DNA of 63,955 nucleotides, counting the filler, from Reclinomonas americana ATCC 50394 (Eukaryota): assembly GCA_048213135.1 (NCBI GenBank). It is 14 parts of 14 records of this genome, joined end to end, with 100 filler letters (N's around TTAATTAATTAA, not from the genome) between each part and the next. Parts side by side here need not be neighbours in the genome. Positions count along the whole stretch, not along the records: positions 47,159 to 49,294 come from AFZH01020899.1; positions 49,395 to 53,913 come from AFZH01020901.1; positions 54,014 to 55,594 come from AFZH01020903.1; 11 more parts are not named here. One strand, written 5' to 3'. Below the pieces are notes generated by a model. It was not told the origin of the DNA. It saw only the letters and a list, made by a program, of their open reading frames with translations, and searched no databases. How positions within the stretch are numbered: position 1 is the stretch's first letter; the number at the start of each line of letters is the position of its first letter. Both the position numbers and the translations under genes were made by a program. Shown here in pieces: positions 37,562 to 63,955 of the stretch.

Positions 37562-40500
37562 TCATTCTGCCTCCACCACTGTGGCGAAGCCGTTGTCGAG
37601 GACCCGTAGTGCCTCTTCGACTTTGTTGCTGTCCACCAGGAGGAAGTCCTCGGAATACCTGAGAAGTGAAAGGGAAGAGGGATGAGGGGGAAGGAAGAGG
37701 AGAAGAGTGAGGGGAAGGAGAAGAACAACAAGAACGAGCGGAGGGGAAAGGAGAAAGGAGAACAGGGAGAAGTGAGAGGAGATGGGAGAATGGTCATCAA
37801 GACAGCTGTTGCCGGCCGGTTTGTTGGTGAATGCAATGTTATTGAAGGAGAAAAGACAAAGAAAGAAAGCAGAGATGAGAGAGGAGACGGAGACAGGTAA
37901 TAACGGCAGAAAGGAAAGAGAAGCGGAGAACGAGAAGAGAAGAGACGAGTGAAAGGGAAGGACGACGAGTGGGAAATGAGAAAGAAGAAAGGAAGCGAAT
38001 AGACAAAGAGAAGAGAAGAGCGCAACAGTGGATGGGATGGAGGCGAAGAGAAGAAGATATGAGTGAAAGAATGGGAGGAGAAGCAGCGGAGCGCAGAAGC
38101 AAGCACAGGAGGAGAGGAGACATTGCGTACATGGAACAGGAGAAGATGCAGCAAAAAAACGAAGAAATGGAACAGCAGGTGAACACGAATGAGGATGAGA
38201 AAACATGACACGAATAGACGCGAGGAGTAGGACGTCAGGCATCAATGGGTGAGGCGAGGCAAGAAAGGAGAAGCACAGGAGGATGAGGGAAACTAGAGAA
38301 TGCGAGTGTGCGGCGAGGAGACGAAGAAAGAAAGAGGATGGGGGAAACTAGAGAATGCGATAGTGCGGCCAGGAGACGAAGAAAGAAACACACAGTTGAC
38401 GAAAGTGCGGGTTCTCGATCGTTTTTTTCGCGCGAGAGTGGGGCGAAGAGACGAGAAGGAATGCATGAGACGATACCTCGAAGAAAGGAACAGATGGAGA
38501 AGGGAGAAGAAGGAGTGAACCCTCGTTCGTTTTCCTCCATGTGCAGGATGCAGCAAACGAGCGAGGAGATGGGAAGTATTGAAGAGAAAGATGGGAAGAG
38601 GCGTGATGGGAGTCCTGCTTTTCTCTTTCAAACTTGAAGTCCGCTGCTCCCTCCCTTCCCCCTTTCCCCCTTTCCCCCTTTCCCCCTTTCCCCCTTTCCC
38701 CCTTTCCTCTCCCTTCTCCCTTCCCTCCCCCTCTGCACGCAACGTGGACAAGTAGAAAATGGAAATATGATGGCGCGCCAGCGGATTGCTGAGCATGTTG
38801 ACCGAGTGGTCGTCGCCCGAGCCCGACGCCGAGTTGCTCAACCGCATCGGCACCCACGACGACGAGTGCGCGACGAGCTTGTCACGCACTCGTGCCGGCA
38901 GCGACGCCCACCGCTCCTCCTCCACAATCACCGACACGTTCTTCTCGTCCCACGACATGGACAAGAAGTCACTGTTTGACAGGGAAAGTGAGCACGCCGC
39001 ATCTCTCCCTCCGACCCATTTGCAAGGCACGACGCAACCCTTCATCCAGCAAAAAGAGTCGCACAAACTCGGCCAGGCAGTGCTCAAAGAATACAGAGCG
39101 CTCCGCATGCACCGTCATCACCCTCCTCGTCAGCGGCTGCACGACCACGCGCTGCTCCTCCGGCACCGACTCGGCGTCGTCGGCGTCCGTGGCAACTGCC
39201 ACCACCGCGTCCTCTTCCCTGCGCTTGTCGGCCTTGAGTGCTCTGCTCAGGGCCTCGGTGGCCTCGACGAGTTCCTCCTCGCGCACGAGCAGGAGGTCCG
39301 AGTCGACGAGGGAGAGGTAGACGAGGGGGAGGTTGCGTTGGGCGAGGGGGCGGGCGAGGCCGGCGATGAGGCCGGTGGAGCCGAGGAGGTCGACGCCTTC
39401 CTCGACCTGGAGGGTAAAAGGGGAAGGAGTGAGGGAAAGGGGGATAAAGGGGAAGGGAGGGAGGGAAGGGGAAGGGAGGGGGACAAAGGGAAAGGGAGGG
39501 GGAGGGAGAATAAAGAGACAAGAGATAGAAAGAAAAATAAAGACAAGAAGAACGATGGAGTGGTCAAGGGAGAAAGAGGCAAGGCAGCAGGAAGAACAAG
39601 GAGATCAGCGAGAGGGAAAGAAAGACAAAACAAGAACATGACGAGACGAGTAGAGGCTGAGAGAGTGGGAAAGAAAAGACGGGAGCAAGGTAGAAAACAG
39701 GTGAAAGCAAGAACGGAGTGAGTCAGACAGAATGTGTATGTGTGTGTGAGAGAGAGAGAGGAGAGACACGAAGAACGAAACAAAGAGAATAAGTAACTGC
39801 AGTAGAACAAGGACGTCAGGAAGAGGGAATGAAAAACAACATGAACACATGACAAGGCATATTGAGGCCGTGAAGAGGAGAAGAAAGATAGGGAGTGCGC
39901 AAGAAAAGACAGAAGCAAGGCAGAGGACAGGTGAAACAATAGCGGAGTGGGTCAGGCAGAATGAGAGAGAGAGAGGAAAGAAAATAACCAAGGTAGAGAA
40001 AGCAAGGCCTCGGTGACAAGACCTTTGCAAGAAATGACGACAAAAAAGACAGAGGCCAAAAGTGAGAAAGAGAGAAGGAGAGTGGCAGATAGAATGAAGA
40101 GAAAGAGACGAGGCTGACAAAATACACACAACAACACCAACAAAACGAGAAAAGGGTACAGAAGACATCGAGAAACTGAAAGCGCAAGGAAACTGGCACA
40201 GATAGAGAGAGAGAGAGCGCGCGAGAGAGAGAGAGAGGAGGGAGTGGAAGCGAGAGAGACGCACAGAGCTGTCCAGGAAAATGGAGAGAAGCCGGAGACG
40301 GCTACAAAGGCTGCGAGGAAAAGGCAGGGCAGAAAAAGAAACTTGGAGAGCAAACAAGACAGAAAGAAGGAAAGTGAGACCACGAGAAGGACAGCAAGCT
40401 GCAAAGGGACACTGACCGCATAGGTATCGAGAAAGAGAATGACATGGAGTGGAAGCAAGAGAAAGTGGAATGAGAGAGACTGAATAGAACACAGAGAGAG

Positions 40501-41857: not shown

Positions 41858-42364
41858 GAGGAGGAGGTGTTCTCTTCGCGTGTGAGAAGTGGGAGACTTT
41901 TTTCGTGGTCGAAGATGCGGAGATTCCAATTATTGGCAGCTCTTTTTATTGGTTTTTTAAGGTGGCTGTGCAGGTGTGGAGGTGGGGGTGTATGAGAGAG
42001 TGTGGCGTGTGTGTGAGAGACAAGACAGCTGGCACTGCGGGGAGGTCGAGACAAGAAAGCGAACGCGACGTCGACGTCGAGAGTTTCTTGCTGCTTTCTT
42101 GGCGAGGGAGGAGGTGAAGGTGCTGCTGCAGGGAGGTCTGTGAGTGGCGCTGGTACATGCGCGTGAAAGTAGAGTGCATTTGGAGTCGTCGACGTCGCTG
42201 CAGAGTGTGCACTTGCTTTGTTGGCGATGTTTGAGGCGTGCACGAACACACTGGTTGGTTCGTCATCGGGGTCTGCAGGCAGTTCAAGAGGTTGCAAGCT
42301 GGTCACTGCATAGTCCTGTCATGCAAGTGTTAGTTTGTCAGAGGACCTGTCAGAGTGCACAACG
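41858..42364. promoter_or_regulatory. Probable bidirectional promoter between the CASTOR-like gene and the Ank-kinase gene
   Basis: The head-to-head ATGs are about 500 bp apart. CCAAT-T-ATTGG (CCAAT on both strands) lies at 41926-41936. Confidence 0.4.
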
Positions 42365-44584
42365 ATGGGTGCGGCGAAAGCGTGGAAGCTGGCGCAAGAG
42401 GGCGATGTGAAGGGACTGCGCAAGTTGGTGAAGAGCAAGGGTGCACAGACTCTGCTGAAGAGAGAGGAGATGGATGAGGGTGGCCTCTCGGCATTTTATT
42501 TTGCCGCTTCACGAGGCCATCTCTCTGTGTTGGAGTATTTGTGGGAGGAAAGTGGTGTCGGGCCACAACTCGCACAAATGGTCGACGACTATGGGTGGAC
42601 GCCACTGATGATGGCTGCCATCAATGGGCGTCTGCAAGTGGTGGAGTGGTTGCTTGCCGATGAGCAACGATGTCCGCCGGAGATGGTGCGGGCGGTTACC
42701 AAAGAAGAACAGTCCACTGCACTGCATTATGCTGCATTGTATGGCAAAGTAGCCATCGTGCGACTCCTCGCCACTCGCTTTCCCGACCTCATTCCCATGG
42801 TCAACAAGCGGGGCAAGACGGCGGCTCAATGGGCAGGCGGCAATAAGAAGCAAGTGGCCGAGTTACTCGGCCGCCTCGCTGCGCAGCCAGCACCACCACC
42901 TCGCCAACAACAACCACCGCAACAACAGCTACGCCCTGCTGCCTCCTCTCCATCCCCTAGGCCTCCATCACCGCCTCCGCGACAAGGTGTGACTCTTCTG
43001 CTGATGCGGACGCTCTCTCTTCCTGCTCGCTCACGCGTACGCTCTCCTCGCCCCATGCGCCTATCTGCATGACACACAGTTCCGGCGCGGCAGGTGAGAC
43101 TGACGCGCTTCTATCGCATCTGGTATGCACCGCGTGATTCCCGTCTCTCATGCTCTTGCTCTCCATGTGCAGGCTTCTGCACCGGTGGCTGCCAACGACG
43201 CCCCCGTGGCCCGCCAGCTTGCCGAGAAGGAAGCACTCAACGCCCAACTTCAGCGCGACCTCGCCGCAGCGCAGCAACAACAACAAGAGTGGGAACGGCA
43301 GCGACGAGAACATGAAAGCGCCGTGGCTCAGCTTCAACGAACAAACGCAGGGCTCCAACAGAGCAAAGCCGAGGCGGAGCAGAGGAGCACCCAACAGCAG
43401 CGATCGATCGAGGAGCTGCGGCAACGCAGCGCAGAGGAACACCAGAGGAACGTGCAAATGCAGCGTGTCAACGAGGAGCTGCAACTGAGCAACGCTGAAG
43501 TGCACCGGAGGAACGAAGAGCTGCAGCTGTCCAACGGAGAGCTGCAGCAACGCAACACTGAGGAACACCAGAGGAACGGAGAGCTGCAGCGACGCCTTTC
43601 TGAGGAGCAGCAGAGGAACGCTCAACAGCAGCGAACCATTACAGATCTCCAGCAACGCAGCGCAGAGGAGCAGCAGAGGAACGCGCAGTTGCAGCAAGGC
43701 AACACCCAGCTCCAAGCCGAACGGGATAGAGTCGTCTCTCTTTTGACTGTGGCTCTGCGTGACAAGGACGACCTCGCCGCGCAGCTGCAAGAAAAGGATC
43801 AACTCGTCTCCCAGTTGCGACAGGACCTCCTCCTCGCCCAAGGTCTGTCTCTCGTCCTGTTTCTTCGTGATGATGTGCTTCCGTGTTCTGTTCTGTGTCC
43901 TTTGTTCTCTCCATTTCTCATTTCCATTGACTTCCGCAGTCGACACCGCCGTGCAGCGTTTCGATTGGCCCGAGATCGTGCACGCCACCGACTCGTTCTC
44001 CCCACGCCTCAAGGTCGGCGAGGGTGGTCAGGGTGCCGTATTCATCACTTTGCTTCGCGAGATGCATGTGGCCATCAAGGTGCTCGACCCCGAGGCACCA
44101 TGGACGATGGAGTCGTTTGAGAGTGAGGTCTGTGTCTCTCTCTCTCTTCTGTTTCTCTCTATCTCTCTTTCTCCTCATTCTTCTCTTTTTCAGGTGGCCA
44201 CCCTCGGACGCCTGCGTGACCGTCGTATTGTGCCTCTTGTTGGCTACTCGGTAGGCGACGACAAGGCACGCTGTCTCGTGTACAAGGCCCTGCAGTGCGT
44301 GTTCATCTCTCTCTCTCATCAGTCATCGTCTCACTGAGGGAGCACACAGAATCCCCAACCTGGAAGATCTGTTGCTGCTGCCACGCGCCGGTCGTGCGCC
44401 ACTCACGGTCGTGCAGCGTGTGCAGATCGGCCTCGGGCTGGCCGAGGCCGTGGTGTTCTTGCACAAGGTCAGCTGGAAGAGAATGCCTTCTGCATCTTTC
44501 ATTCTTCCTCTGAGGCAGCCTTGCTCTCTTTGCTTGCACTACTTTCTCTCCTGTCGCTCACTTTGCCGTTCTCGTCTCTTCTTG

Positions 44585-44615
<31 letters not shown>

Positions 44616-45525
44616 GTCTCCTTCCTGATGTGCTTCCTGCATCGTGTCTCGCCTCGCCGTGCTTGTACTCGTTTCTCTTCTGTCACTCACTTTGCTGTTC
44701 GCTCCCAGTCCCACGTGTTCTCTACTACTCTCCCTCTCTCTTTCTCTCTCTTTCTCTCTCTCTCTCTTTCTGTCTGTCTGTCTTTCTGTGTCTGTCTGTC
44801 TGTCTGTCTGTCTGTCTTTCTTGTCTCCTCTCTCTCTCTCTCTTTCTGTCTGTGTGTCTCGCTCTGTCGCTTTCTCTTTCTCTAACTCTCGAGCTCTCTG
44901 TGTCTCTCTCTCTCTGTCTCTCTCTCTCTCTCTCTGCACCTCCCTGTTGTATTTTTCATGGTTTCTCCCTCGCCTCACTCACCTCCTCCCTCGCAGAATA
45001 ATGTCGTGCACCGCGACATCAAGCCCTCCAACGTGCTTCTCGATCACCGCTTCGAGCCATGCATTGGTGACTTTGGCATCGCAAGGTCGATTGCCGGAGG
45101 CAAGGTCTGCTCTTCTCTTCTCTTCCCTCTCTTTCTCGCCCTCGCTCACTCTCTCATCTCCCAAGTCAACTCCCGCCGCCGGCACGCCCGACTACATGGA
45201 CCCACTGGCCATTCGCGCTCGGCACCCCCTCCCGGAGCACGACGTCTACAGTATGGGCGTCGTGTTGGTGCAGCTGGTCACCACCAAACCGGTTGTGACG
45301 GTGGGCGAGTGGTCCCTCGCGTGGGATCGCTCGCCAGCCTCACTGCGCGTGATGGAGTTGGTGGACGGTGGAGTGGAGTGGACTCCGCGCATCGCCGAAC
45401 CGATGTTCGAACTCGGCATGCGATGCATGAGCGTGCGACGAGACAGACCGACGGCACAAGAGGCACTCGATGTGATGCGCTCGGTGCGCGAGGCGTGTGG
45501 GCAGTTCACGCTGGTTATTGATTGA
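42365..45525 (+). CDS. Ankyrin repeats + Gln-rich coiled coil + IRAK/Pelle/RLK-family protein kinase
   Basis: Ankyrins: GWTPLMMAAINGRLQVVEWLL. Kinase: QRFDWPEIVHATDSFSPRLKVGEGGQGAVF..VAIKVL..FESEV..LVGYS..CLVYK..VHRDIKPSNVLLD..IGDFGIAR..AGTPDYMDP..DVYSMGVVLVQLVT. All catalytic motifs are intact. Confidence 0.9.
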
Positions 45526-46334: not shown

Positions 46335-46710
46335 ATGATTACCCCGCGCTTTGAGTGCTCCCAAGATGACGACTACATCGTTACGCTCTCCCCCTGAGTG
46401 TCTCTCTCTCTCTCTCTTTCTCTCACCCTTTGACACACCCACTGACAGACGGTCCTCATCCACGTCTCCCTCGTGCGCACACAAGAAATGGATTTCTACA
46501 TCAGCGGGCGCGAATTCAAATTCTACGTGCGCCCCTACTTTCTGCGCCTCCTCTTCCCCCACGAATTGGCCGACAATTCAGCACCACCAGAAGCAGAAGG
46601 AGCGCTGCAGGCAGAGACCACATACGACCCTGGCGCGGGCACAGTGAGTGTGCGATTGCCCAAGGCGGAACGCGGTCGCTTCTTTCCCGGATTGCACATG
46701 CTTAGTGCCT
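46335..46710 (+). pseudogene. SHQ1: SHQ1 5' duplicate, copy 2 (intact CS domain only, runs into the next repeat unit)
   Basis: MITPRFECSQDDDYI|TVLIHVSLVRTQEMDFYISGREFKFYVRPYFLRLLFP..YDPGAGTVSVRLPKAERGRFFPGLHMLS, then reads through to TGA at 46949. Confidence 0.65.
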
Positions 46711-46945
46711 ATGGTATAGCCGCTGCTCTCTCCCTTCCATCACAAAAGGTCGAGTCTAAGTACAACGAAAGCATTGACATTTCGATATCAACGTCGCGAC
46801 GTCGATCGGCATTCCTTCCCCGTTCCTCCTCCTGCTCCCTCCCACTGATGATCACCAAGCACCCACTTACATTCTACACTTGCAACGACTGCCACTCTTC
46901 TCACCACACACAAACGTCGCCTCCACACAGGACACTCACTCCCAA

Positions 46946-48288
46946 ATGATCACTCCGCGCTTTGAGTGCTCCCAAGATGACGACTACATCGTTACGCTCT
47001 CCCCCTGAGTGTGTGTGTGTCTCGCTCTCTCTTTCTCTCACTTTGACACAGACGGTGCNNNNNNNNNNNNNNNNNNNNNNNNNNNNNNNNNNNNNNNNNN
47101 NNTTAATTAATTAANNNNNNNNNNNNNNNNNNNNNNNNNNNNNNNNNNNNNNNNNNNNCGAGGCCAAGAGGCTGCAGCGCGCGACCGCCGGCGCCGCCGC
47201 CGCTGCCACCACCGAGAGCGACGAAAGTGCCGATCCCGACACCCGCTACGCCGCGACATTTCCGTGGACCGAGCCGGAGACCAAGACCATGTTGGCGCTG
47301 CCGAAAAAAGAATGTGCGTGCGCTCGCGTGTTTTCCTCTTTTTCTCCTGTTCCTTCTCACACTCGCGCGCGCGCGCGCGCACGCAGTCCTCGTGGAGAAC
47401 CCGCGCGTCCTGTACGTGGGCCTGGTGGATCTGCTCTTCGCCTACTGCTACAATCACCGCGTGACCGGCGGCGAGAACACGGTCGAGTCGGCGTGGACCA
47501 TTTGTACGCTGTCGTCGACGCTGTCGTGGTTGGATGTTGCGTGTGATTGCGCCCCGACGTGGTCCCTCGGGTCGTGGGGGAGCAACTGACGATATGCGTG
47601 CCAGGTGTTCTCCGACGTGGAGGAGTGCGTGGTCAGCTGCTTCCGACGAGCACTCTCCTATCCGTTGTATCGGCATTTCGGCTTGTGTGAGACGGTGAGC
47701 AGAAGAAGGAGTGTGGGGCGGTTTGGAGACGATGCCATAATTATGCATTTGTGCAGGTGCTCCGTGACGTGGCGACTGTGCTTTCGCTCGGACTGCCAAG
47801 GTGAGTAGCATTGGGGAGTTTCAGCGTGATGAAAGGTGACAGCGCATGATGTGAAGGGATGGTGAGAAGAGGGAGAAGAGGGGGAGAGACGTCGTAAGCT
47901 GCGATTGTTCTTCATGGCTTGCTTTGTTTTGGATCTCACTCTGTGCTGCGCCAGCGTCCTGCGATGTCTGCTGGAGATTCGCTACATTTTCGAGCACTCG
48001 GAGCCGCGCTACATTCTCAACAAGCTCTACATTGACGACTACTGCATTTGGATACAATCGCTGCGGTTTGTGTACAGTGGCGCACACTTCAAGTGGCAAG
48101 GGCCTTATCTCTCCCTCTCCTCCCACAGGTCTGGAAGTCTCAGACCGCTGCTGGAGCGAGTAGAGGCGTGTCACGTGAGCAAGGAGAGCATCGAGTGGCC
48201 GCTGGAGGCACTCGAATCGATTGCGGCAGAGGGAGGTGGAGAGGAGGAGGAGGAGGATATAGAGGAGCAGGACATAGAGGAGCGATGA
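46946..48288 (+). CDS. SHQ1: H/ACA snoRNP assembly chaperone SHQ1 (probable full-length copy, interrupted by a gap)
   Basis: Third MITPRFECSQDDDYI start. After the gap: GLVDLLFAYCYNHRVTGGENTVESAWTICTLSSTLSWLD, FRRALSYPLYRHFGL and RYILNKLYIDDYCIWIQ, which are SHQ1 domain motifs. Confidence 0.9.
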
Positions 48289-48389: not shown

Positions 48390-50135
48390 CAAAGTTACAG
48401 TGTGCTGCGATTGTCCTTTCCTCCTCTCCTCTTCTCTCTCACACATGGAGCCACAATCGCTCTTTGTGCGCAGCATACAACCTGTACTCGCACGCAAACA
48501 GGCTCGCAAACGCCTGCTGAGTGCACTCTTTGCCAGTGTGCGACGCGCGAGTGAGGCCGTGTGTGCGATTGTTGAGAAGCAGCGGAGAGGCGGAGAAGGC
48601 GATGGAGATGGAGAAGAAGGGGAGGAGAATGGGGAGAGAATGGTAGGAGAAGAAGAAGAAGAAGAAGAAGAAGAAGAAGAAGAAGGCGATTACTGGTTGC
48701 AATACAGGAGCAATCAATGTTACAGTGTGCTGCGATTGTCCTTTGCTCCTCTCCTCTTCTCTTCTCTCTCACATGGAGCCACAATCGCTCTTTGTGCGCA
48801 GCATACAACCTGTACTCGCACGCAAACAGGCTCGCAAACGCCTGCTGAGTGCACTCTTTGCCAGTGTGCGACGCGCGAGTGAGGCCGTGTGTGCGATTGT
48901 TGAGAAGCAGCGGAGAGGCGGAGAAGGCGATGAAGGAGATGGAGAAGAAGTGGAGGAGAATGGGGGGAGAATGGTAGGAGAAGAAGAAAGGCGATTACTG
49001 GTAGCAATACAGGTGCAATCAATGATACACTGCGATTGTCCTTTCCTCCTCTCCTCTTCTCTCACACACATGGAGCCACAATCGCTCTTTGTGCGCAGCA
49101 TTCAACCTGTGCTCGCACGCAAACAGGCTCGCAAACGACTGCTGAGTGCACTCTTTGCCAGTGTGCGACGTGCAAGTGAGGCCGTGTGTACATGTGCGAT
49201 TGTTGAGCAGCAGCGGAGAGGCGGAGAAGGCGATGGAGATGGAGAAGAAGGGGAGGAGAATGGGGGGGAGAATGGTAGGAGAAAGAAGAAAGGCNNNNNN
49301 NNNNNNNNNNNNNNNNNNNNNNNNNNNNNNNNNNNNNNTTAATTAATTAANNNNNNNNNNNNNNNNNNNNNNNNNNNNNNNNNNNNNNNNNNNNAAACAG
49401 GCTCGCAAACGACTGCTGAGTGCACTGTTTGCCAGTGTGCGACGTGCGAGTGAGGCCGTGTGTGCGATTGTCGAGCAGCAGCGGAGAGGCGGCGGAGAAG
49501 GCGAAGGCGATGGAGAAGAAGGGGAGGAGAATGGGGGGAGAATCGGAGGAGAAGAAAAAAGGCGATTACTGGTTGCAATACAGGTTATAATTACAGTGTG
49601 CTGCGATTGTCCTTTCTTCCCTCTCACACATGGAGCCACAATCGCTCTTTGTGCGCAGCATACAACCTGTACTCGCACGCAAACAGGCTCGCAAACGACT
49701 GCTGAGTGCGCTCTTTGCCAGTGTGCGACGTGCGAGTGAGGCCGTGTGTGCGATTGTTGAGCAGCAGCGGAGAGGCGGCGGAGAAGGCGAAGGCGATGGA
49801 GAAGAAGGGGAGGAGAATGGGGGGAGAATGGTAGGAGAAGAAGAGGCGATTACTTGATGCAATATAATACAGGTTACAATGTGCTGCGATTGTCCTTTGC
49901 TCCTCTCCTCTTCTCTCTCTCTCACATGGAGCCACAATCGCTCTTTGTGCGCAGCATTCAACCTGTACTCGCCCGCAAACAGGCTCGCAAACGACTGCTG
50001 AGTGCACTCTTTGCCAGTGTGCGACGTGCGAGTGAGGCCGTGTGTGCGATTGTTGAGCAGCAGCGGAGAGGCGGAGAAGGGGATGATGGAGATGGAGAAG
50101 AAGGGGAGGAGAATGGGGGGAGAATGGTAGGAGAA
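48390..50135 (+). repeat. ~300-330-bp tandem array (at least 6 units), each copying the upstream sequence and start of exon 1 of the dynamin-like gene
   Basis: ATGGAGCCACAATCGCTC at 48445, 48773, 49070, 49630 and 49926, plus a partial unit at 49395. Each encodes MEPQSLFVRSIQPVLARKQARKRLLSALFASVRRASEAV. Confidence 0.95.
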
Positions 50136-53100
50136 GTGGGTGTGGGCGTGGGTCGAGTGGATGCCGATGTGGGAGAGGGAGTTGGAGTGGTGAGGATGTC
50201 GGTGGAGGAGGAGCAGGCGGAGGAGGAGCGGAGGAGAGTGAGAGCGGTGAGTGAGAGAGAGTGTGTGTGTGTGTTTTGGTGTCTGTTTGATCATCTGTGT
50301 GTGTGCATTGTGTGATCACTCTTTTCACTCATTTCCTTCTTTTTGTTCCTTTTCTCTCCGCTTTATCGTTTTCTTCGTCTCGCCTCTTCCTTCTCCTCCT
50401 CTCTATCTTCACTTTTACACTTGTTCACTTCTTTTGCTCTCTTCTTCTGTCTTTTCCCTTTCTCCAAGTTCTGCCCCTCTCCTCGTTCTCTCTTTGTGCT
50501 CTCTCTCTCTCTCTCTTCCTCGTGTCCTTGCTCTCAACATTTCTTTCTCCCTCTCTCCATCTTCTCCCCTCCTCCTTGTCTCTCATTCCCGTCTTCATTG
50601 TTCTGTTCTCTTCTTCTCTCCTCCTTCTCCTTCCCTTCTCTCTGCGTACGCTCACTCGCTCACCCTTACTCATCTCCTTGCTCTCAACAATCCTTGTCTT
50701 CGCGTTCTTTCTCCATCCGCTCTCCTCTTCTATCTCTTCGCTCTTCGCTCTTTGCACTCATTCCTTGCTTGCCTTCATTCCTCGTCTTCTCGTCTCCTCC
50801 ACTCTCATTCCGTCACTCTTTGCACTCATTCCTTTCTTTATTGTTCTTCCCTCGTCGTCTTCTCTCCTCCTTCTCCTTCCCTTCTCTCGGCGTGCACTCA
50901 CTCGCTCGCCCTTCCTCATATCCTTGCTCTCATCATTCCTTTTCCTCGCTTTCTCTCTCCCCTTGTCTCGCTCTCTCCTCTCCTCTCCACCCTCTTCACA
51001 TTCACTCCTCCTTCCCCTCACCCTCATCTCCTCCCGCAGTTCGACCCCATGTCCGTGCTCCAGTCACCCGAACTCGCACGCATCACGCGTCTGTTGGAAA
51101 AGGCAAGCCTCCTCATCCTGCACTCCACCCACCCACCCGCCGACTCTCATCCCCCCGCCTTCCCATTCACAGCAAGAATGCCGCTTGATGACCATTGGTC
51201 GCACCAACACGTTCCGTCTTCTCTCCGTTCCATTCCCCCTTGCTCCCCCCATTCACTCATCCCGGCTGCAGCGGCAAGTCCACGCTGTGGAACGCATTTC
51301 TCGGTGTCCCCCGCCTCCTCCGTCGCTCCAGCCGAGCATGCACCCCTCGCATTGTGGAGCTCGGACACGGCGAGGTCGGCGAGGCGGTGCTGCTGGACGC
51401 ACAGGGGCAGGTGCTGGAGTCGCGGCGCCTGGAGGGTCTGCGGCTGCCCGACGACATGGTGCGCCGACTCGCGCCGAGCCAGCGCATGCCGGCCGGTAGT
51501 GGGGTGGTGGGAGCGGCGGGAGTGGATGTGGCCGACGAGGAGCAGGTCGGGTGTGTGGTGTGCTGCCAGCTGCCGCTGACGGTGCTCGATACGGGTCTGT
51601 GCGTGATTGATTCACCGGGCCTGGGCGAGCTGCCGTCGTTGGATGCGGTGGTCAAGCAGCAGGCGGCGGAGGCTGACGGTATTATTTACATTATCGACAG
51701 TAGGGATCCCATGAACCGGCAGGTTTGTGTGGAGAAAGGGGAAGGGGCGGAGAGAGGGAGAGTGAGACAGGAGGGAGAGATGTGCGTGCTTGTGAGTTTC
51801 CTCTTGAATCGGTTGCTGATTTGCCCTCATGAGTCGCTGTTGTCTCTGTCAACTACTTTTCTCACTCTCTCTGGTTGTTTGAGTTTCCTCTCGATGTCTG
51901 CTGCGCTCCCCCGCCCTTGGGTCTTTGTTTGTAGGTTTATGTTAATCCTACATCTGTCTCTTTCTCCTCTCAGCGAGTTAGTGAGTATCCTCGCAAATCG
52001 CCATCGTACGCTGCATTTCAAACGACACAGTTCGTTCCGCGTGAACGTGACATTCTCTCCAACAATCACCATCGTTCTGGCACTCTGCTGTTCTCTCCCT
52101 TCTCTTCTTCATCGTCTGCCTGGCTCTGTTCGCCACTTTCTCTTCCCCTGCGTGCCTGTGAGGCATGCCCACGATGCAATTCGCTCCACGGGTGATAGTC
52201 TCCTTTTCCTGCTCTCTCCTTGCCACTCACCCTTCCCCTTTCCACTTCCTCCTTCCACCAGGACGTGGACACCCTCCGCGAACTCGCCGCCCTCGGCACC
52301 CCCATCATGTTCCTCGTCAACCTGTGGCAACGAGCCGACGACGACGAAGACGATGATGAAGAGGAAGATAGTGAGGCGGCGGGAATGAGGGAGCTGGAGG
52401 CGCTGGAGATGACCATTCGGGAGTTGCGTTCCTTCTCCCTCTCCATCCTCGCTCTCCTTCCCACCTTAATCCGCCACACCTTTTCCCCCTCTCAGGCGCT
52501 TGCGAGATGTCGGCATGGCCCCCGATGCCTCGCGCTTGCAGTTTGTCGACGTCAAGCAGGCGGTCTGTACCATCGTTTGCTTTGCTCTTCACTCAGCATC
52601 CTGCTCATCACTGACTCACGTTGCTGCTGCGCAGTGGCGCGCCTCGGCCGTGAGTCACCATGAATCACTTCATTTCTGCACTCTCGTGTCTGACATCCCC
52701 CTGCAGGGCCGAGTGTCGGCGTATCCAGCAGACTTCACCGTTTCGTCACTCTCTTCTCCCCTGCCTCCCCCTTGCCCCTCGCTCACTTTCCCATATCATT
52801 GCCAGCTCTTCATGACCCACCTCACCACCTTTGTCGGCGACATTTGGTCAGCGGAGACATTCCAAGCCGCGCGCGATCTCCAAACCGTGGTGCGCACTGT
52901 GCTACAGTCGCTGTTGCACGAACGGTGCGTGGAAACAGCGATGCTCTTGAGGTGCTGCATTCCTCCCTCACTCTTTCGCGCAGTGAATCCGGGGAGGAGA
53001 TTCGGCAGCGGTTCACGGTGACCGAAGAGGCGCTGCAGCGATTTCTTGACGCCATGTTGCGTGCTGCTGCCCCGCCTCTTGCCTTTCCTGCCAATAACTG

Positions 53101-53710
53101 ACCGCCTGCCACAGGACCGCCGTGCCCGCTGTGGTGGAGGATCGAGTGCGCGAGGGTCTCCGACAGATTGTGGCCGAGGATGCATTTCGCGCCGCCATTG
53201 TAGTCGAAGTGGACAGCGCGGTCATGCGTGGACAATTTAGCGTGCGTGCACAGCTTAGTTGCCTCATGTCTTGTTTCTCGTGACTAACCTCCATACTCAT
53301 GCAGTCCGTACCTGCCGGCGTTCGAAAGCGAGACCACACGAACCAGATCATTTGGGGGATTGTTCACAGACAGGTCTCGTCGCGTGGAAGAACCTTCTGC
53401 TTGTGCGCATTTCGCCTCACTACCCTCCCCTCGCAGTTGGAACAATCTCTGCAAGTGCCGGTCATTGTGGGGCAAGTGGTGGGCGCGGCGGTGGCGCGCG
53501 GTCGTGACCAGGTGCAAGCGTACCTCGACGAACTCGGCGACGGTCACTCGGCGACTCTTGCGCGTGTTTTGCAGGATGCATTTGGAGCGGGTACCGAACT
53601 TAGTGGTCCCGAGTTTCAGTGGGAGCTGGTCGGTGGCGTCAGCGGCGCAGGTGGTTCAATTGGCATGACTTTGCTGACGATTGGAGCGTTTGCGACGTCG
53701 GCGGAAACGG
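49926..53710 (+). CDS. Dynamin-like (Dynamin_N/BDLP/mitofusin-type) GTPase, N-terminal part of a multi-exon gene
   Basis: Exon 1 is 49926-50246 (phase 0), exon 2 starts at 51040, then a GC-AG intron 51103-51172 and an intron 51211-51271. This gives G1 IGRTNTGKSTLWNAFLG, G2 ACT, G3 VIDSPG, ADGIIYIID and a G4-position FLVNLWQ, then helical exons and the hydrophobic segment LVGGVSGAGGSIGMTLLTIGAF. Confidence 0.85.
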
Positions 53711-54157
53711 TGTGTCTCAACTGAAGGGATTCCTTTTATTGATTTTTGGCTTCTTTCCTCCTCGGTCTCTTCGTCTTTTTTCGCCGGTCCCCTCCCGCCT
53801 CCCGCCTCCGTCTTCCCCCTTGTCTTCCCCTTGTCTTGCCCCTTGTCTTGCCCCTTGTCTTGCCCCTGTCTTCCCCCATGTTCTTCCCCCCTTCCGTCTT
53901 CCCCCCTTCCATCNNNNNNNNNNNNNNNNNNNNNNNNNNNNNNNNNNNNNNNNNNNNTTAATTAATTAANNNNNNNNNNNNNNNNNNNNNNNNNNNNNNN
54001 NNNNNNNNNNNNNAGGCGCGCGCGGCGTGTGGGAAGTAGGTGGTGTGCGGGGGAGGGGGAAAGGGAAGTGGAGGAGAGAGAGAGAGAGAGAGAGAGTGAG
54101 ATTGATGCCGTGTCTCTTGTTTGCTTCGCTTTCGTCTCACCGTGTTGCCTCACGCAG

Positions 54158-55093
54158 TTTGGAACCATCAACGGCGCCGATTGCGCGATTGTCTCGCTTC
54201 CGCTGGATCCCGAACGACGACTCACATCGCTGTTTGCGGTTCACAATTTGCTGGCTTTCCGGTGAACTCCCTTGTATGCCTACCTTATCCGTCCAGCTGC
54301 TGACTCGCTTGCTGCAGTGGTCAGCGCGGTGTGCTGACTGCCCGTGCCGTTCAAGTTCCCGACTTGCTGTCACTCGTGCGCGCCGGTGAGTGACCTTTTT
54401 TCCATCATCGCAACCTCCGCCCTGCTGCTGAGTTAGAAGCAGATGTCGGCGATCGGCTGCGCGATCCCGATCAAATCCTCGTGTGCGTTCCACCATGTGA
54501 ATCGTCGCTGGCAGTCTTTGCGGTCGAGCGCTTCGGCACTGTGAGCACGGGAGAGCGCATCGCGCTGATTGCGAGCGTCATCAAGGGTCTGGCCGCCCTC
54601 CATCGACGCCGCTGTGCGCACGGCCACTTGCGCGCGGAGAACTTTCTTGTGCGTGGTACCATGTCACCGAAATCGGAGGCAGGCACTCGGGATGCTCATC
54701 TCTTTGTCACAGATGCAACGAGCCGGCGATCCCTCCAGCATTCTGCTGGCCGACGCCGGAGTGACAGGCGCGTTTGCTGGCAGCTGGGCCAACATGTCAC
54801 CGTGGATGATTCCACCGGAGCACCGGCGAGTGCCGTCGTTTGCCGGCGATGTGTTCTCGCTGGCCTGCATCATATTCCAAATCATCTTCATCAACGACGA
54901 TGTCGCCATGTTTGACAACGGCACTTCTGCGCATCCGGCACGCCCCGAGAACATCTTCGTGGAGCTGCCGGAGGAGTCTGTGGATCGTCTGTGGCAGCTG
55001 CTGGAGCGCTGCTGGTCCGACGATCCCGCCCGACGGCCCAGCTCGGCTGATATATTTGCCGAGTTTGCCTCCATGTTTGGCTCGGCGCCGTGA
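54158..55093 (+). CDS. Protein kinase-fold domain, probable pseudokinase; likely the C-terminus of the dynamin-like gene
   Basis: IKGLAALHRRRCAHGHLRAENFL|..LLADAG..WMIPPE..GDVFSLACII..LWQLLERCWSDDPARRPSSADI. HRD is HGH, DFG is DAG, and VAIK is CAIV. Confidence 0.8.
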
Positions 55094-55594: not shown

Positions 55595-58500
55595 NNNNNN
55601 NNNNNNNNNNNNNNNNNNNNNNNNNNNNNNNNNNNNNNTTAATTAATTAANNNNNNNNNNNNNNNNNNNNNNNNNNNNNNNNNNNNNNNNNNNNGGAGAG
55701 GAAGAGGAAGGGAGAGAGAGAGAGAGAGAGCGAAACAGAGAGACCGTTCATAACACGCAGATAGAGAAGAGGAGAACGACACACAGCCCCTTGTTGTTCA
55801 ACTTTCACCTCATCAGATGCACCAAGCTTCTCTATCTTAAACACGCCGAACTCAGCAAAACGACAAACATGGACGCAGATTGTTGCTGCCCTCTTTCGCA
55901 ACTAATCTCCTCACTCTGTCTCTCTCATTCGCAGAAAGGTAGCATCAAAGAGTTCGTTCCACGGACCGCACAGACAACAAGTCAACAAAATTCGCACACT
56001 GCCTCACTCGCGCACACGCAGATTGTTGCCGCTCACGCTCAGCCATTGTCCTGACGCACTCTTTTCCTTCTCATGCTCCACCATTGTCCTCTTATGACAC
56101 AGAGAGACATAGTTCGCTCTCTGTCTCCCTACATTTCCCCTCTCGCTTCGTCTTTTACACACACTCCGTCTCTCTCTCTCTCCCACACACACACACACAA
56201 ACACACATGTCAACACAGAAACAGAGAGACAAGAACACAGAGCTAAATCACGGACAACAGTCAGTAACTCACTGCTGCGCAAAAACACCTCCCTGCCTCC
56301 CTTCCCCATATTCCCCTTCCTCTTCACCCTTCTCCCTTTTCCTCACCCGATCAAACAACTCGGTAATGGTGCCATCATGCACACGGAGGAACCGCCGATG
56401 CGGCTCTGGATCGGCATTCTTGCGCAGCGTGAAGATGATAATCTGCACGTTGACCTCCTCAAAGTCCTCGTCGTACTCGTCAAACATGCGGAACTCGTAG
56501 ACCACGGCCCGGCGGCGTTGACCTGCAAATAGGGAAGGCGGAGGGGTGAGCGGATCAATAAAGAAAAACTATGTGTTGCGAAATCTTATGATTCCCTCTC
56601 CCTCTATCTCCTTTTCCCTCTCCCTCTTTTCACCCTCTCCTTCACCCTCTCCCTCTTCTTCCCCTTCTCCCCCTCTTCCTCCCTTCCCTTTCCCCCTCTT
56701 CCTCCCTTCCCTTTCCCTCACTCACCATTCGGCCCCCTCCACCTCTCCGCCTTGTCGACAATATAATGCAGCTCCTTGATGGACAGCTCCAAATCATGCG
56801 GCACGAAAAACACCTTCTCCTCGCCGTGCAGCCGCGTGTACACATCGTACATCAGGCCATTCATGTGAATGCGCAGAATGTACGTGTAGAGCACCGCCGA
56901 GGCCACTAGCACCAGCACAATGTCGATGAACACGGTGGCAATGGCGCCGAGCACGCCAACACCCTCCGAGTACACAAACTTGTTGTAGAGCTTGAAGGCG
57001 TCGCCGTAGGTCCAATTCTTGATGATGCAGTCGACCGTCACAATCAGAATGGGGTCGAGGATCGTGCCGAGGCCAAAGGCGATGACGAAACGCGAGCCCC
57101 ACGCCAGCGTCGTGTCCATCAGGCGTTGTGAGGCCCACGACATGAGAATGAGCAGTAGTAGAATGATAATGTTGAAGAAGACGCCAAAGGCGGTGGTGCC
57201 GAACTCGATGCCGACCGACAGCAGCTCCCACTGGTATTTCAGCTCGACGTGATAGAAGAGGGGGTTGTAGGAGGAGATCGGCACGCCAATCAGCTGCAGG
57301 TAGAGCCACTGGCCAAAGTAGTGCGTGTACAGACGCATCCATAGCACGCTGAGGAGCAGGAAGATCATGCCCCAGAACTCCGAGTTGCGCCAGTCCGACA
57401 GCGCCATGTCGGAGACGGTGGCGCGCCACACGTACGACATTTTGTGGCTGGCCTCTTTGCGGCCGCGGTAGGTGGTCTAGTAAATGGGGAAGGGGGAAAG
57501 GGGAAGGGGAAGGAGGGAAAGGGGAAGGGGGTGAGAGGAGGGAAAGGGAGTGGAGAAGAAAGAGGGAGTGGGGAAAGGGAGAGGGAGTGGGGAAAGGGAG
57601 AAGGGGTGGAGAAAGGGACAGGGAGTGGGGAAAGGGAGAGGGAGTGGGGAAAGGAAGAGGGAGTGGGGAAAGGGAGAGGGAGTGGCGAATGGGAGAGGGA
57701 GTGGGGAAAGGGAGAGGGAGTGGCGAATGGGAGAGGGAGTGGGGAAACGGACAGGGAGTGGGGAAAGGGAGAGGGAGTGGAGAAAGGGAGAGGGAGTGGG
57801 GAAAGGAAGAGGGAGTGGGGAAAGGGACAGGGAGTGGGGAAAGGGACAGGAAGTGGGGAAGGGAGAGGGAGTGGGGAAAGGGAGAGGGGGCGAGGAGAGG
57901 GACAGAGGGAAGTGAGAGAGAGAGAGAGATATGAGGTGAGAGCACAAATTGTGGAGAGACGACAGAATAAAAACGTGGCAGAAAAGAAGTCGTTGTGTTA
58001 CAAGTGACAGCAAGAAAGTACGCCAGGGAGACGAGAGAACACGAGAAACGGACTTCCCACAATCAACTCACCGGCTGTCGAATCGAATAACGATGGCGTT
58101 CCAGCTTCTGCGCCAGCGTCGGTGTTTTCTTGTGCACCGTCAGGCGTCGCTTGTACGCTCCCATGTTCTCCTTGACGTAGTCGTGGAGGAACATGTCGTG
58201 ATCGAGAACGTCGTCGCCGTGCACATAGTACGTCATGCCAGGGGCGACGCGGCGCATTTTGTGGAAATTCGACTGCAATAGGCAGAGGTGAGCACTCGAC
58301 AGCACCACTGCCCTCTCCACAATCCCCTCACGAAACTGTGTCTACTTCATCGCCTCGCAACAGCATCGTCGGCCTCGAGCGGTTGAAGCGACTGCGCCGC
58401 ACACACATGGAATTGGATTCAAACACAACACACGCTTGAACAACAAAACGACTCACCTTCCAAGTAGCGCCTCGTCGAGCGTGGCCACTGCCACCAGCTG

Positions 58501-62758: not shown

Positions 62759-62864
62759 NNNNNNNNNNNNNNNNNNNNNNNNNNNNNNNNNNNNNNNNNN
62801 NNTTAATTAATTAANNNNNNNNNNNNNNNNNNNNNNNNNNNNNNNNNNNNNNNNNNNNCCATCA

Positions 62865-63955
62865 GCGCAACGGATTCGAACAGTACTGCATCAACTTTGT
62901 GAACGAAAAGCTGCAGCAAATTTTTATCGAACTCACTCTCAAGTCCGAGCAAGAGGAGTACGTCCGTGAGGGCATCCAGTGGGAGCCGATTGACTATTTC
63001 AACAACAAGATCGTGTGCGATCTTATCGAGGGACGGGTGCGCGATTCCCCTCGCCCGATGTGGATAACGCAAATGGTGTGCAATTCTTCTCATTTTATCT
63101 CGGTTGTGTGTGCAGCAACCACCGGGCATGTTCCTTTTGCTGGACGACACTTGCCGCGCAGCACACGCCATGGAGAGCCGCGTGGTCGACGAACAATACG
63201 TGGAAAAGGTGCAGCAGAATTTCAGCTCTCATCCACACTTCCGCTCTACGGGGACTGTCTTCACCATTCGCCACTATGCTGGTGAGGGACGCTTTTGCAG
63301 TGTTGACGTTGGTGGCGGAATCTAATTGTCTCCCCCTGTCGCCGTTGGGTGTGCAGGTGATGTCGAGTACGATGTTTACGGATTCTCAGAGAAGAACAAG
63401 GACTTGCTGTACCGTGAGCTGATTGAGCTCATGCTGGGAAGCTCGAATATGCTGGCGAAGCACCTGTTCCCTGCGGAGGAAGCCGACGATCGTCGTGTGC
63501 CGACCACCGCTGGCTTCAAGATGAGGGTGCGTGTGGTCCGTGTGCAGACGCGTGTACAACGGCATCTATGTTGACCGCCGATGCGTGTGCAGACGTCGGC
63601 CAACGACCTTGTGAGTACGCTCATGTCGTGCCATCCACACTACATTCGATGCATCAAGCCCAACGAGACCAAGCGGCCAAATGATTTCGACGACGACCGT
63701 GTCATGCATCAGATCAAGTATCTCGGCCTGCTGGAAAACCTGCGAGTGCGCCGCGCTGGTTTTGTCTACCGAGAGACATTTGTTAATTTCTTCACGCGGT
63801 ACGCTATTGTGTGTGCGTGTGGCGGATCTGTTGATTGTTGTTGACTCACCTGTGTTGGATTCGATTGAATCTCGCAGGTTTGCTCTGCTCTCGCGCGATC
63901 ACCTGCGCACTCTGCGCGAGGCTCGTGAATCGGGCGGCCTTGATCCAGAAACCGC
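62865..63955 (+). CDS. Class I myosin motor domain, internal exons (partial at both ends)
   Basis: [96 protein letters not shown] and [15 protein letters not shown]. Confidence 0.95.

Follow-up and report, generated by a model that had tools for sequence, protein, structure and literature searches.

The locus considered here raises the question of whether a dynamin-like GTPase and a degenerate kinase, encoded one after the other on the plus strand, are two parts of one protein. It occupies positions 49926-55093 of a 63,955-nucleotide stretch of DNA from Reclinomonas americana ATCC 50394 (NCBI assembly GCA_048213135.1), and this whole stretch is referred to as the window. A preliminary description made from the sequence alone had read the locus as a GTPase fused to a dead kinase, with an architecture like that of animal DSTYK. 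This first observation was largely right and is partly confirmed, the window gene being a divergent variant of a known family. Both halves probably belong to one gene, whose product would be a divergent protein of the DSTYK (dusty kinase) family.

The window is eukaryotic DNA with many short spliceosomal introns. Its 14 contigs are joined by 13 identical linkers of 100 bases (N44-TTAATTAATTAA-N44; none expected by chance). What had been described as one 100-bp gap between the two halves, at 53914-54013, is one of these 13 linkers. It contains stop codons in all frames and is an assembler's placeholder of non-genomic origin, which says nothing on the real distance between its flanks. The parts of the locus are as follows.

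49926..50246, plus strand: exon 1, 107 aa, starting at ATG 49926 in the last of six copies of a ~231-nt unit and ending at donor gtgagt
51040-51102 and 51173-51210, plus strand: exons 2 and 3, exon 3 ending in GRTNT, the first half of the P-loop
51272..51722, plus strand: exon 4, the GTPase core with GKST, the switch-I Thr and DSPG; Dynamin_N
52262..52422, plus strand: exon 5, carrying the deviant G4 motif (NLWQ, 52319-52330) and then an acidic run
52496-52562, 52635-52649, 52707-52739, 52806-52924, 52984-53055, 53115-53241 and 53305-53373, plus strand: exons 6 to 12, helical stalk
53437..53709, plus strand: exon 13, helical, followed by a Gly-rich hydrophobic segment (53626-53703) and a phase-0 donor
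53710..53913, plus strand: intron-like CT-rich repeat that runs into the linker and contains TGA 53722-53724
53914..54013, no strand: linker N44-TTAATTAATTAA-N44 between the GTPase and kinase halves
54158-54261, 54318-54385, 54443-54648 and 54713-55093 (stop codon included), plus strand: pseudokinase in four exons, 252 aa

The GTPase model (49926-53709) consists of 13 exons encoding 603 aa, with a frame that is open throughout. Of its 12 introns, 11 have GT-AG borders and one has GC-AG borders; ten measure 57-73 nt, and the two long ones (793 and 539 nt) are rich in CT. Exons 6-12 keep an open frame across GT-AG introns of 57-73 nt, and a conserved Y-x-A-D-F is encoded by micro-exons within 52496-53373. 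Exon 4 alone matched Dynamin_N of Pfam with an E-value of 7.3e-9 and 36.3 bits (PF00350 cut-off 27), in agreement with the dynamin-like assignment made earlier. The motif readings of the preliminary description were likewise reproduced in this half. The P-loop GRTNTGKST is spliced, being split by a 61-nt intron (51197-51210 / 51272-51284), and exons 2-3 align to the helix that precedes the P-loop in DSTYK proteins. G2 and G3 are intact, with the switch-I Thr (ACTPR, 51336-51350) and DSPG (51609-51620) in invariant columns. In the alignments with relatives, the Gly-Lys-Ser of the P-loop, the switch-I Thr and the D-x-P-G of DSPG were invariant over 7 rows of alignment A1 and 11 rows of A2 and A3. 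To judge from these residues, the P-loop, switch I and switch II of the G domain look as if they work. The G4 motif is indeed deviant: NLWQ stands where six relatives carry TKID, SKVD, SKIE, SKVD, NKWD and NRWD, and it lacks both the Lys and the Asp of the pattern [TSN][KR]x[DE]. The Gly-rich hydrophobic segment was also found, at residues 576-601.

Exon 1 gave no Pfam match and is presumed to be the first exon of the GTPase gene. It lies at the end of an array (48429-50140) of six tandem copies of the ~231-nt unit, spaced 274-328 nt apart, each of which holds an upstream region and the start of exon 1, from its ATG through ~46-70 codons. The splice donor is reached in the last copy alone, and the linker 49295-49394 lies inside the array, which could be a genuine promoter/first-exon array or an assembly artefact. 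The single GC-AG intron (51103-51172, 70 nt) has the donor gcaagc; the other 14 modelled introns are GT-AG.

The comparison with DSTYK rests on homology and not on mere resemblance, as both the search for relatives and the tree placement indicate. In an exhaustive phmmer search of exon 4 against 1.84 billion cluster representatives, only 11 proteins matched at E<=1e-3, the best with 38% identity. Three of them carry a kinase domain according to Pfam, with strong matches in P0006 and P0009 and a match at E 0.01 in P0007. P0007 (Ptychodera) and P0009 (Branchiostoma) are named "dual serine/threonine and tyrosine protein kinase-like", P0005 clusters with a 951-residue Nematostella DSTYK, and P0006 is an uncharacterised Branchiostoma protein. 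The other matches are P0002, which pairs with P0006, two dynamins of bacterial type, P0004 and P0010 (P0010 also has a TerB domain), and four unnamed proteins of 281-309 aa (P0001, P0003, P0008 and P0011) that group with DSTYKs in the tree. These four match DSTYK N-termini up to YV[VI]DGxNL[FL]T and then continue into unrelated tails; they look like first DSTYK coding exons read into the intron by a prokaryote-style gene caller. Exon 4 is 27-36% identical to ten relatives. The full spliced model found P0009 as its best BLASTP match (E 8.6e-21, 25% identity over 391 columns), in an alignment of model residues G 113-479 with P0009 residues 46-416 that extends well beyond the G domain into the stalk.

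A phylogeny was calculated with IQ-TREE from 41 G domains, namely the window sequence, 10 DSTYK-like proteins and the 30 that scored best among the other dynamin-like proteins collected; P0005, partial matches and duplicates within clusters were left out. The window G domain fell within the 11-row DSTYK-like clade (support 98/96) and apart from the 30 other dynamin-like proteins. It was sister to the animal DSTYKs (sister join 90/80, animal clade 99/97) on a branch of length 1.4, and P0006 with P0002 branched outside this group. Because it is sister to the animal DSTYKs with P0006 further out, the window GTPase is bracketed by kinase-carrying proteins. At the level of sequence comparison, the GTPase half is a divergent member of the DSTYK-like family. 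Word-indexed searches gave no match of exon 4 to longer proteins and, with P0009 as query, only the Lingula DSTYK along with generic kinases and dynamin-like proteins. A search with alignment A1 (7999 scored candidates) was dominated by generic kinases and bacterial dynamins and returned no further fused protein. In the ESM Atlas, exon 4 retrieved only generic bacterial Dynamin_N clusters, all with scores <0.9, and a PDB sequence search yielded neither a DSTYK structure nor a significant match to exon 4.

DSTYK is a disease gene and, to our knowledge, its large N-terminal region is treated as uncharacterised in the literature. The fold class of this region was approached through the homologue P0009, so the structural evidence comes from the model of that protein. 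An AlphaFold2 model of P0009 residues 1-644, computed from an 11-row alignment, reached a mean predicted local distance difference test score (pLDDT) of 73.7 and a predicted template modelling score (pTM) of 0.62. In this model a G domain leads into very long helices, with return helices at 549-635. Foldseek against the PDB placed the bacterial dynamin-like protein (BDLP) of Nostoc (2j69) at the top, with E 7e-16 and a full-length alignment, followed by Campylobacter dynamin-like proteins DLP1/2, mitofusin 2, IniA and mitofusin 1. Since the model matches BDLP and the mitofusins, the N-terminal two thirds of DSTYK proteins are therefore a dynamin-like module of the BDLP/mitofusin class. No description of the DSTYK N-terminus as dynamin-like was found in the excerpted texts returned by a literature search. 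A view of DSTYK as a BDLP-type dynamin plus kinase may be a more general, and perhaps more useful, lead than the window gene.

A good acceptor in phase 0 precedes the kinase half, which opens with FGTINGADCAIVSL midway through the N-lobe; the first strand of a kinase and most of its Gly-loop would lie further upstream. As reported before, it has no start codon: no in-frame ATG occurs from the linker to the first kinase exon. Its motifs are degenerate in the way first described, with CAIVS for VAIK, HGHLRAEN for HRDLKxxN and DAG for DFG, so that the β3 Lys, the αC Glu and the Arg and Asp of HRD are missing. The Asn of RAEN, the Asp of DAG, PPE and CW..DP..RPS are kept. On the strength of these motifs this half is classed as a pseudokinase. 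Its assignment to the kinase fold was borne out. Positions 68-130 and 156-258 of the Pfam profile Pkinase were matched collinearly in consecutive exons, though with only 19-20 bits each (E ~1e-3) against a cut-off of 31.7, and the matches to solved kinases and to a DSTYK-kinase model given below agree with this fold.

The two halves lie on the same strand in the expected order, and the phase-0 donor at 53709 faces the phase-0 acceptor at 54158. A single fused gene is favoured because the kinase half has no start codon, the intron phases are compatible and the G domain belongs to a kinase-carrying family. By alignment, the GTPase model ends at about residue 540 of P0009 and the kinase fragment begins at about residue 655, while P0006 has ~140 residues at this place. 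The ~105-140 residues missing between the halves comprise the stalk's return helices and the beginning of the kinase, and the absent stretch coincides with what the relatives carry between stalk tip and kinase. Aligned in this way, ~105-140 codons for the stalk return helices, the first kinase strand and the Gly-loop are probably hidden at the linker. A direct splice from 53709 to 54158 was also considered and rejected; it would be in frame but would omit the return helices and the Gly-loop present in all relatives.

A number of observations weigh against a fused gene of this family, or against parts of that interpretation, and they are taken up here and in the next three paragraphs with the explanations that they favour. 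The first concerns the end of the GTPase half. The earlier statement that no stop precedes the gap stands if the donor ACG|gtgtgt (53709/53710) is spliced and fails if it is not, since TGA 53722-53724, four codons beyond the proposed donor, then ends the frame. Such a stop would suit two separate genes, namely a dynamin-like GTPase on its own, which would end at TGA 53722 or in the gap, and an independent pseudokinase with its 5' exons in the gap. The same explanation gains from the approximately unbiased (AU) test, which did not reject a position of the window G domain outside the kinase-bearing bracket (log-likelihood difference 13.0, p 0.113), and from the presence of another kinase gene nearby (44886-45518), kinases being common here. 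It gains as well from the kinase half, which shows no convincing DSTYK-specific signal in its sequence. The best matches of this half among solved structures are generic kinases (C-lobe exon in phmmer against the PDB: the pseudokinase of guanylyl cyclase C (GC-C) at 1.6e-5, Roco4 at 3e-5, then ABL1). A hidden Markov model of DSTYK kinases built without the window scored it at 37.6 bits (E 1.1e-11), the lowest of 66 matched proteins. In a kinase tree, it joined the DSTYK kinases with a support of 88 in the Shimodaira-Hasegawa-like approximate likelihood ratio test (SH-aLRT); its branch measured 5.3 and lay beside one of like length, that of P0007, in a comparison set that had no tyrosine kinase-like (TKL) or tyrosine kinase (TK) members. 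Two separate genes nonetheless appear unlikely. An end at 53724 would truncate the dynamin-like fold and remove the return helices, which are present in each of the five aligned relatives (549-635 in P0009). The kinase fragment, for its part, lacks a start codon and begins midway through its N-lobe at an acceptor. The family, moreover, predicts a DSTYK-type GTPase followed by a kinase on the same strand. Nor is the fragment a paralogue of the neighbouring kinase; an origin as a tandem copy of 44886-45518 was rejected when tblastn returned no match at E<=1.

The second group of observations concerns the assembly. The flanks of the linker 53914-54013 are unlike, with CT-rich sequence on the left and GA-rich sequence on the right, which fits missing sequence and proves nothing. 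This change in composition, together with a linker that carries no information on length or evidence and with the shortness of the contigs (the kinase-bearing one has 1581 bases), would also agree with a scaffolding artefact in which the two flanking contigs are not genomic neighbours. Low-complexity GA- or CT-rich DNA surrounds most of the linkers. At the linker beginning at 55595, both flanks are one and the same GA repeat, and the exon-1 repeat of the GTPase gene carries on in register across the linker 49295-49394; both points speak against an artefact. The same holds for the SHQ1 gene upstream (46446-48285, plus strand; a CS domain followed by an SHQ1 domain split over two exons), which served as a control for the scaffold. 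It crosses the linker 47059-47158 with the CS domain before and the two parts of the SHQ1 domain after it, all on the plus strand and in the correct order, and the scaffold is for this reason held to be locally sound. As strand, order and intron phase at 53914-54013 also all suit one gene, we regard a misjoin as highly improbable.

A third explanation sees in the locus a decaying copy: a DSTYK-like paralogue, deprived of G4 and of its kinase active site, would be turning into a pseudogene without independent function. The changes in both enzymatic halves do look disabling, and both halves sit on long branches (1.4 for the G domain and 5.3 for the kinase). Decay of this kind would, however, hardly be expected to leave 17 exons with an open frame and canonical splice sites, nor to spare the P-loop, both switch regions and many structural positions of the kinase. 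Pseudokinases are, besides, usually functional. A gene on its way to loss is accordingly considered improbable.

The remaining contrary observations bear on the hydrophobic segment and on the occurrence of relatives. The segment at 53626-53703 has a Kyte-Doolittle mean of 1.43 over 19 residues, the usual threshold for a transmembrane segment being ~1.6, and four true DSTYKs have no hydrophobic segment at this place. Among metagenome contigs, exon 4 gave 598 pattern matches and no relative, and a search for one exact 26-base stretch of the first kinase exon found no match. With these points taken into account, one fused DSTYK-type gene is still the reading that we prefer.

For the fused protein, a mode of action can be proposed by analogy with BDLP and the mitofusins. 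The G domain would bind and hydrolyse nucleotide, dimerise and make the stalk open and close on a membrane, into which the hydrophobic Gly-rich tip would dip. The dead kinase would act as a docking, regulatory or allosteric domain rather than as an enzyme. Because NLWQ removes the guanine-reading residues, nucleotide use may be weak or not specific for guanine. The function as membrane sensor or scaffold proposed in the preliminary description is likewise hypothetical.

Little is known of DSTYK function according to a review (PMC10492769), in which the protein is set apart from the RIP kinases and linked to urinary-tract malformations and to spastic paraparesis SPG23. As far as can be read from its motifs, the window gene presents a very divergent relative in which the GTPase motifs are preserved and the kinase is dead. 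If the halves are fused, it would be a natural separation-of-function variant. Membrane remodelling would then be indicated as the role that the family has conserved, and the gene would offer a handle on the kinase-independent part of DSTYK. A further proposal is possible but rather doubtful. It holds that a BDLP/mitofusin-type dynamin and a kinase were fused before the sampled animal DSTYK clade (cnidarian to chordate) arose and that the window gene is a deep-branching, possibly non-animal member, with the GTPase (membrane-dipping tip, relaxed base specificity) as its working part and the kinase used for docking only. DSTYK would then have begun as a membrane-remodelling machine, and the signalling kinase would have come later. 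Two separate genes would leave a divergent dynamin-like GTPase beside an orphan pseudokinase.

Apart from SHQ1, other genes were recognised in the window. Ankyrin repeats at 42314-43069 (plus strand) are followed by the above-mentioned kinase exon at 44886-45518, which has a match to the HRD region, and the two may belong to one ANK-kinase gene (42314-45518, plus strand). A fragment of a myosin motor (62860-63955, plus strand) begins directly after the linker 62759-62858; a motif search of the preceding contig did not find its P-loop part. Of two exons on the minus strand, one (28062-28502) has a GLE1-like match at E 1.4e-8 and the other (38972-39604) matches ACT_7 at E 4.2e-8. The remaining long open frames are mostly without a Pfam match, and Rfam and tRNA scans of the window gave no matches.

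Among known systems, the BDLP/mitofusin class (Nostoc BDLP 2j69, Campylobacter DLP1/2 5oxf, MFN1/2 and IniA) resembles the DSTYK-like family in the fold of the N-terminal module, as judged from the P0009 model, and none of these proteins has a kinase domain. Sequence similarity between exon 4 and BDLP in the PDB is marginal (E 0.94). The window protein and its bacterial relatives P0004 and P0010 are alike in carrying a hydrophobic tip about three quarters along the dynamin-like module. The ROCO proteins (LRRK2 and Roco4 of Dictyostelium) also combine a GTPase and a TKL-like kinase in one polypeptide, and Roco4 was matched by the C-lobe exon at the E-value of 3e-5 given above. The GTPase of ROCO proteins is a Ras-like Roc-COR unit, not a dynamin-like one, and Pfam found no Roc or COR signal in the window exons.

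Two of the animal relatives each share one feature with the window protein. The Ptychodera flava DSTYK-like protein XP_070553793 (P0007) has, like the window protein, an intact P-loop and a degenerate kinase, with FNN for HRD and no DFG; unlike it, P0007 keeps the G4 motif SKVD and has no hydrophobic tip. As P0007 lacks both HRD and DFG, a dead kinase arose elsewhere in the DSTYK family. The Branchiostoma protein XP_078600538 (P0006) carries a strongly hydrophobic segment (Kyte-Doolittle 2.18) at the place of the Gly-rich segment, near which the one encoded by exon 13 aligns. It differs from the window protein in a mitofusin-like G4 (NKWD) and an active-looking kinase with HRD and with DLG for DFG.

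The closest architecture is that of the animal DSTYKs (dusty protein kinase, also RIPK5), for which the description as a dynamin-like N-terminus joined to an active kinase proved accurate, the invertebrate proteins combining Dynamin_N with a canonical kinase. Those of Branchiostoma belcheri (XP_019629705, P0009), Lingula anatina (P0033) and Nematostella vectensis (XP_048589780, P0029) were compared with the window protein. The G domain and stalk are homologous, the N-terminal helix, Dynamin_N and long helices follow in the same order, with a kinase fold that would likewise be C-terminal, and the acidic run after G4 is common to the window protein and the animal DSTYKs. The Gly-rich hydrophobic tip is present in the window protein and absent from these three. 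At G4, NLWQ contrasts with their [TS]K[IV][DE]. All three keep an intact P-loop together with the β3 Lys, αC Glu, HRD and DFG that the window kinase has lost; CAVKQ, HRDIKPQN and DFG of P0009 correspond to CAIVS, HGHLRAEN and DAG. Relative to these proteins, the window sequence suggests a pattern in which the GTPase is mostly kept and the kinase is dead.

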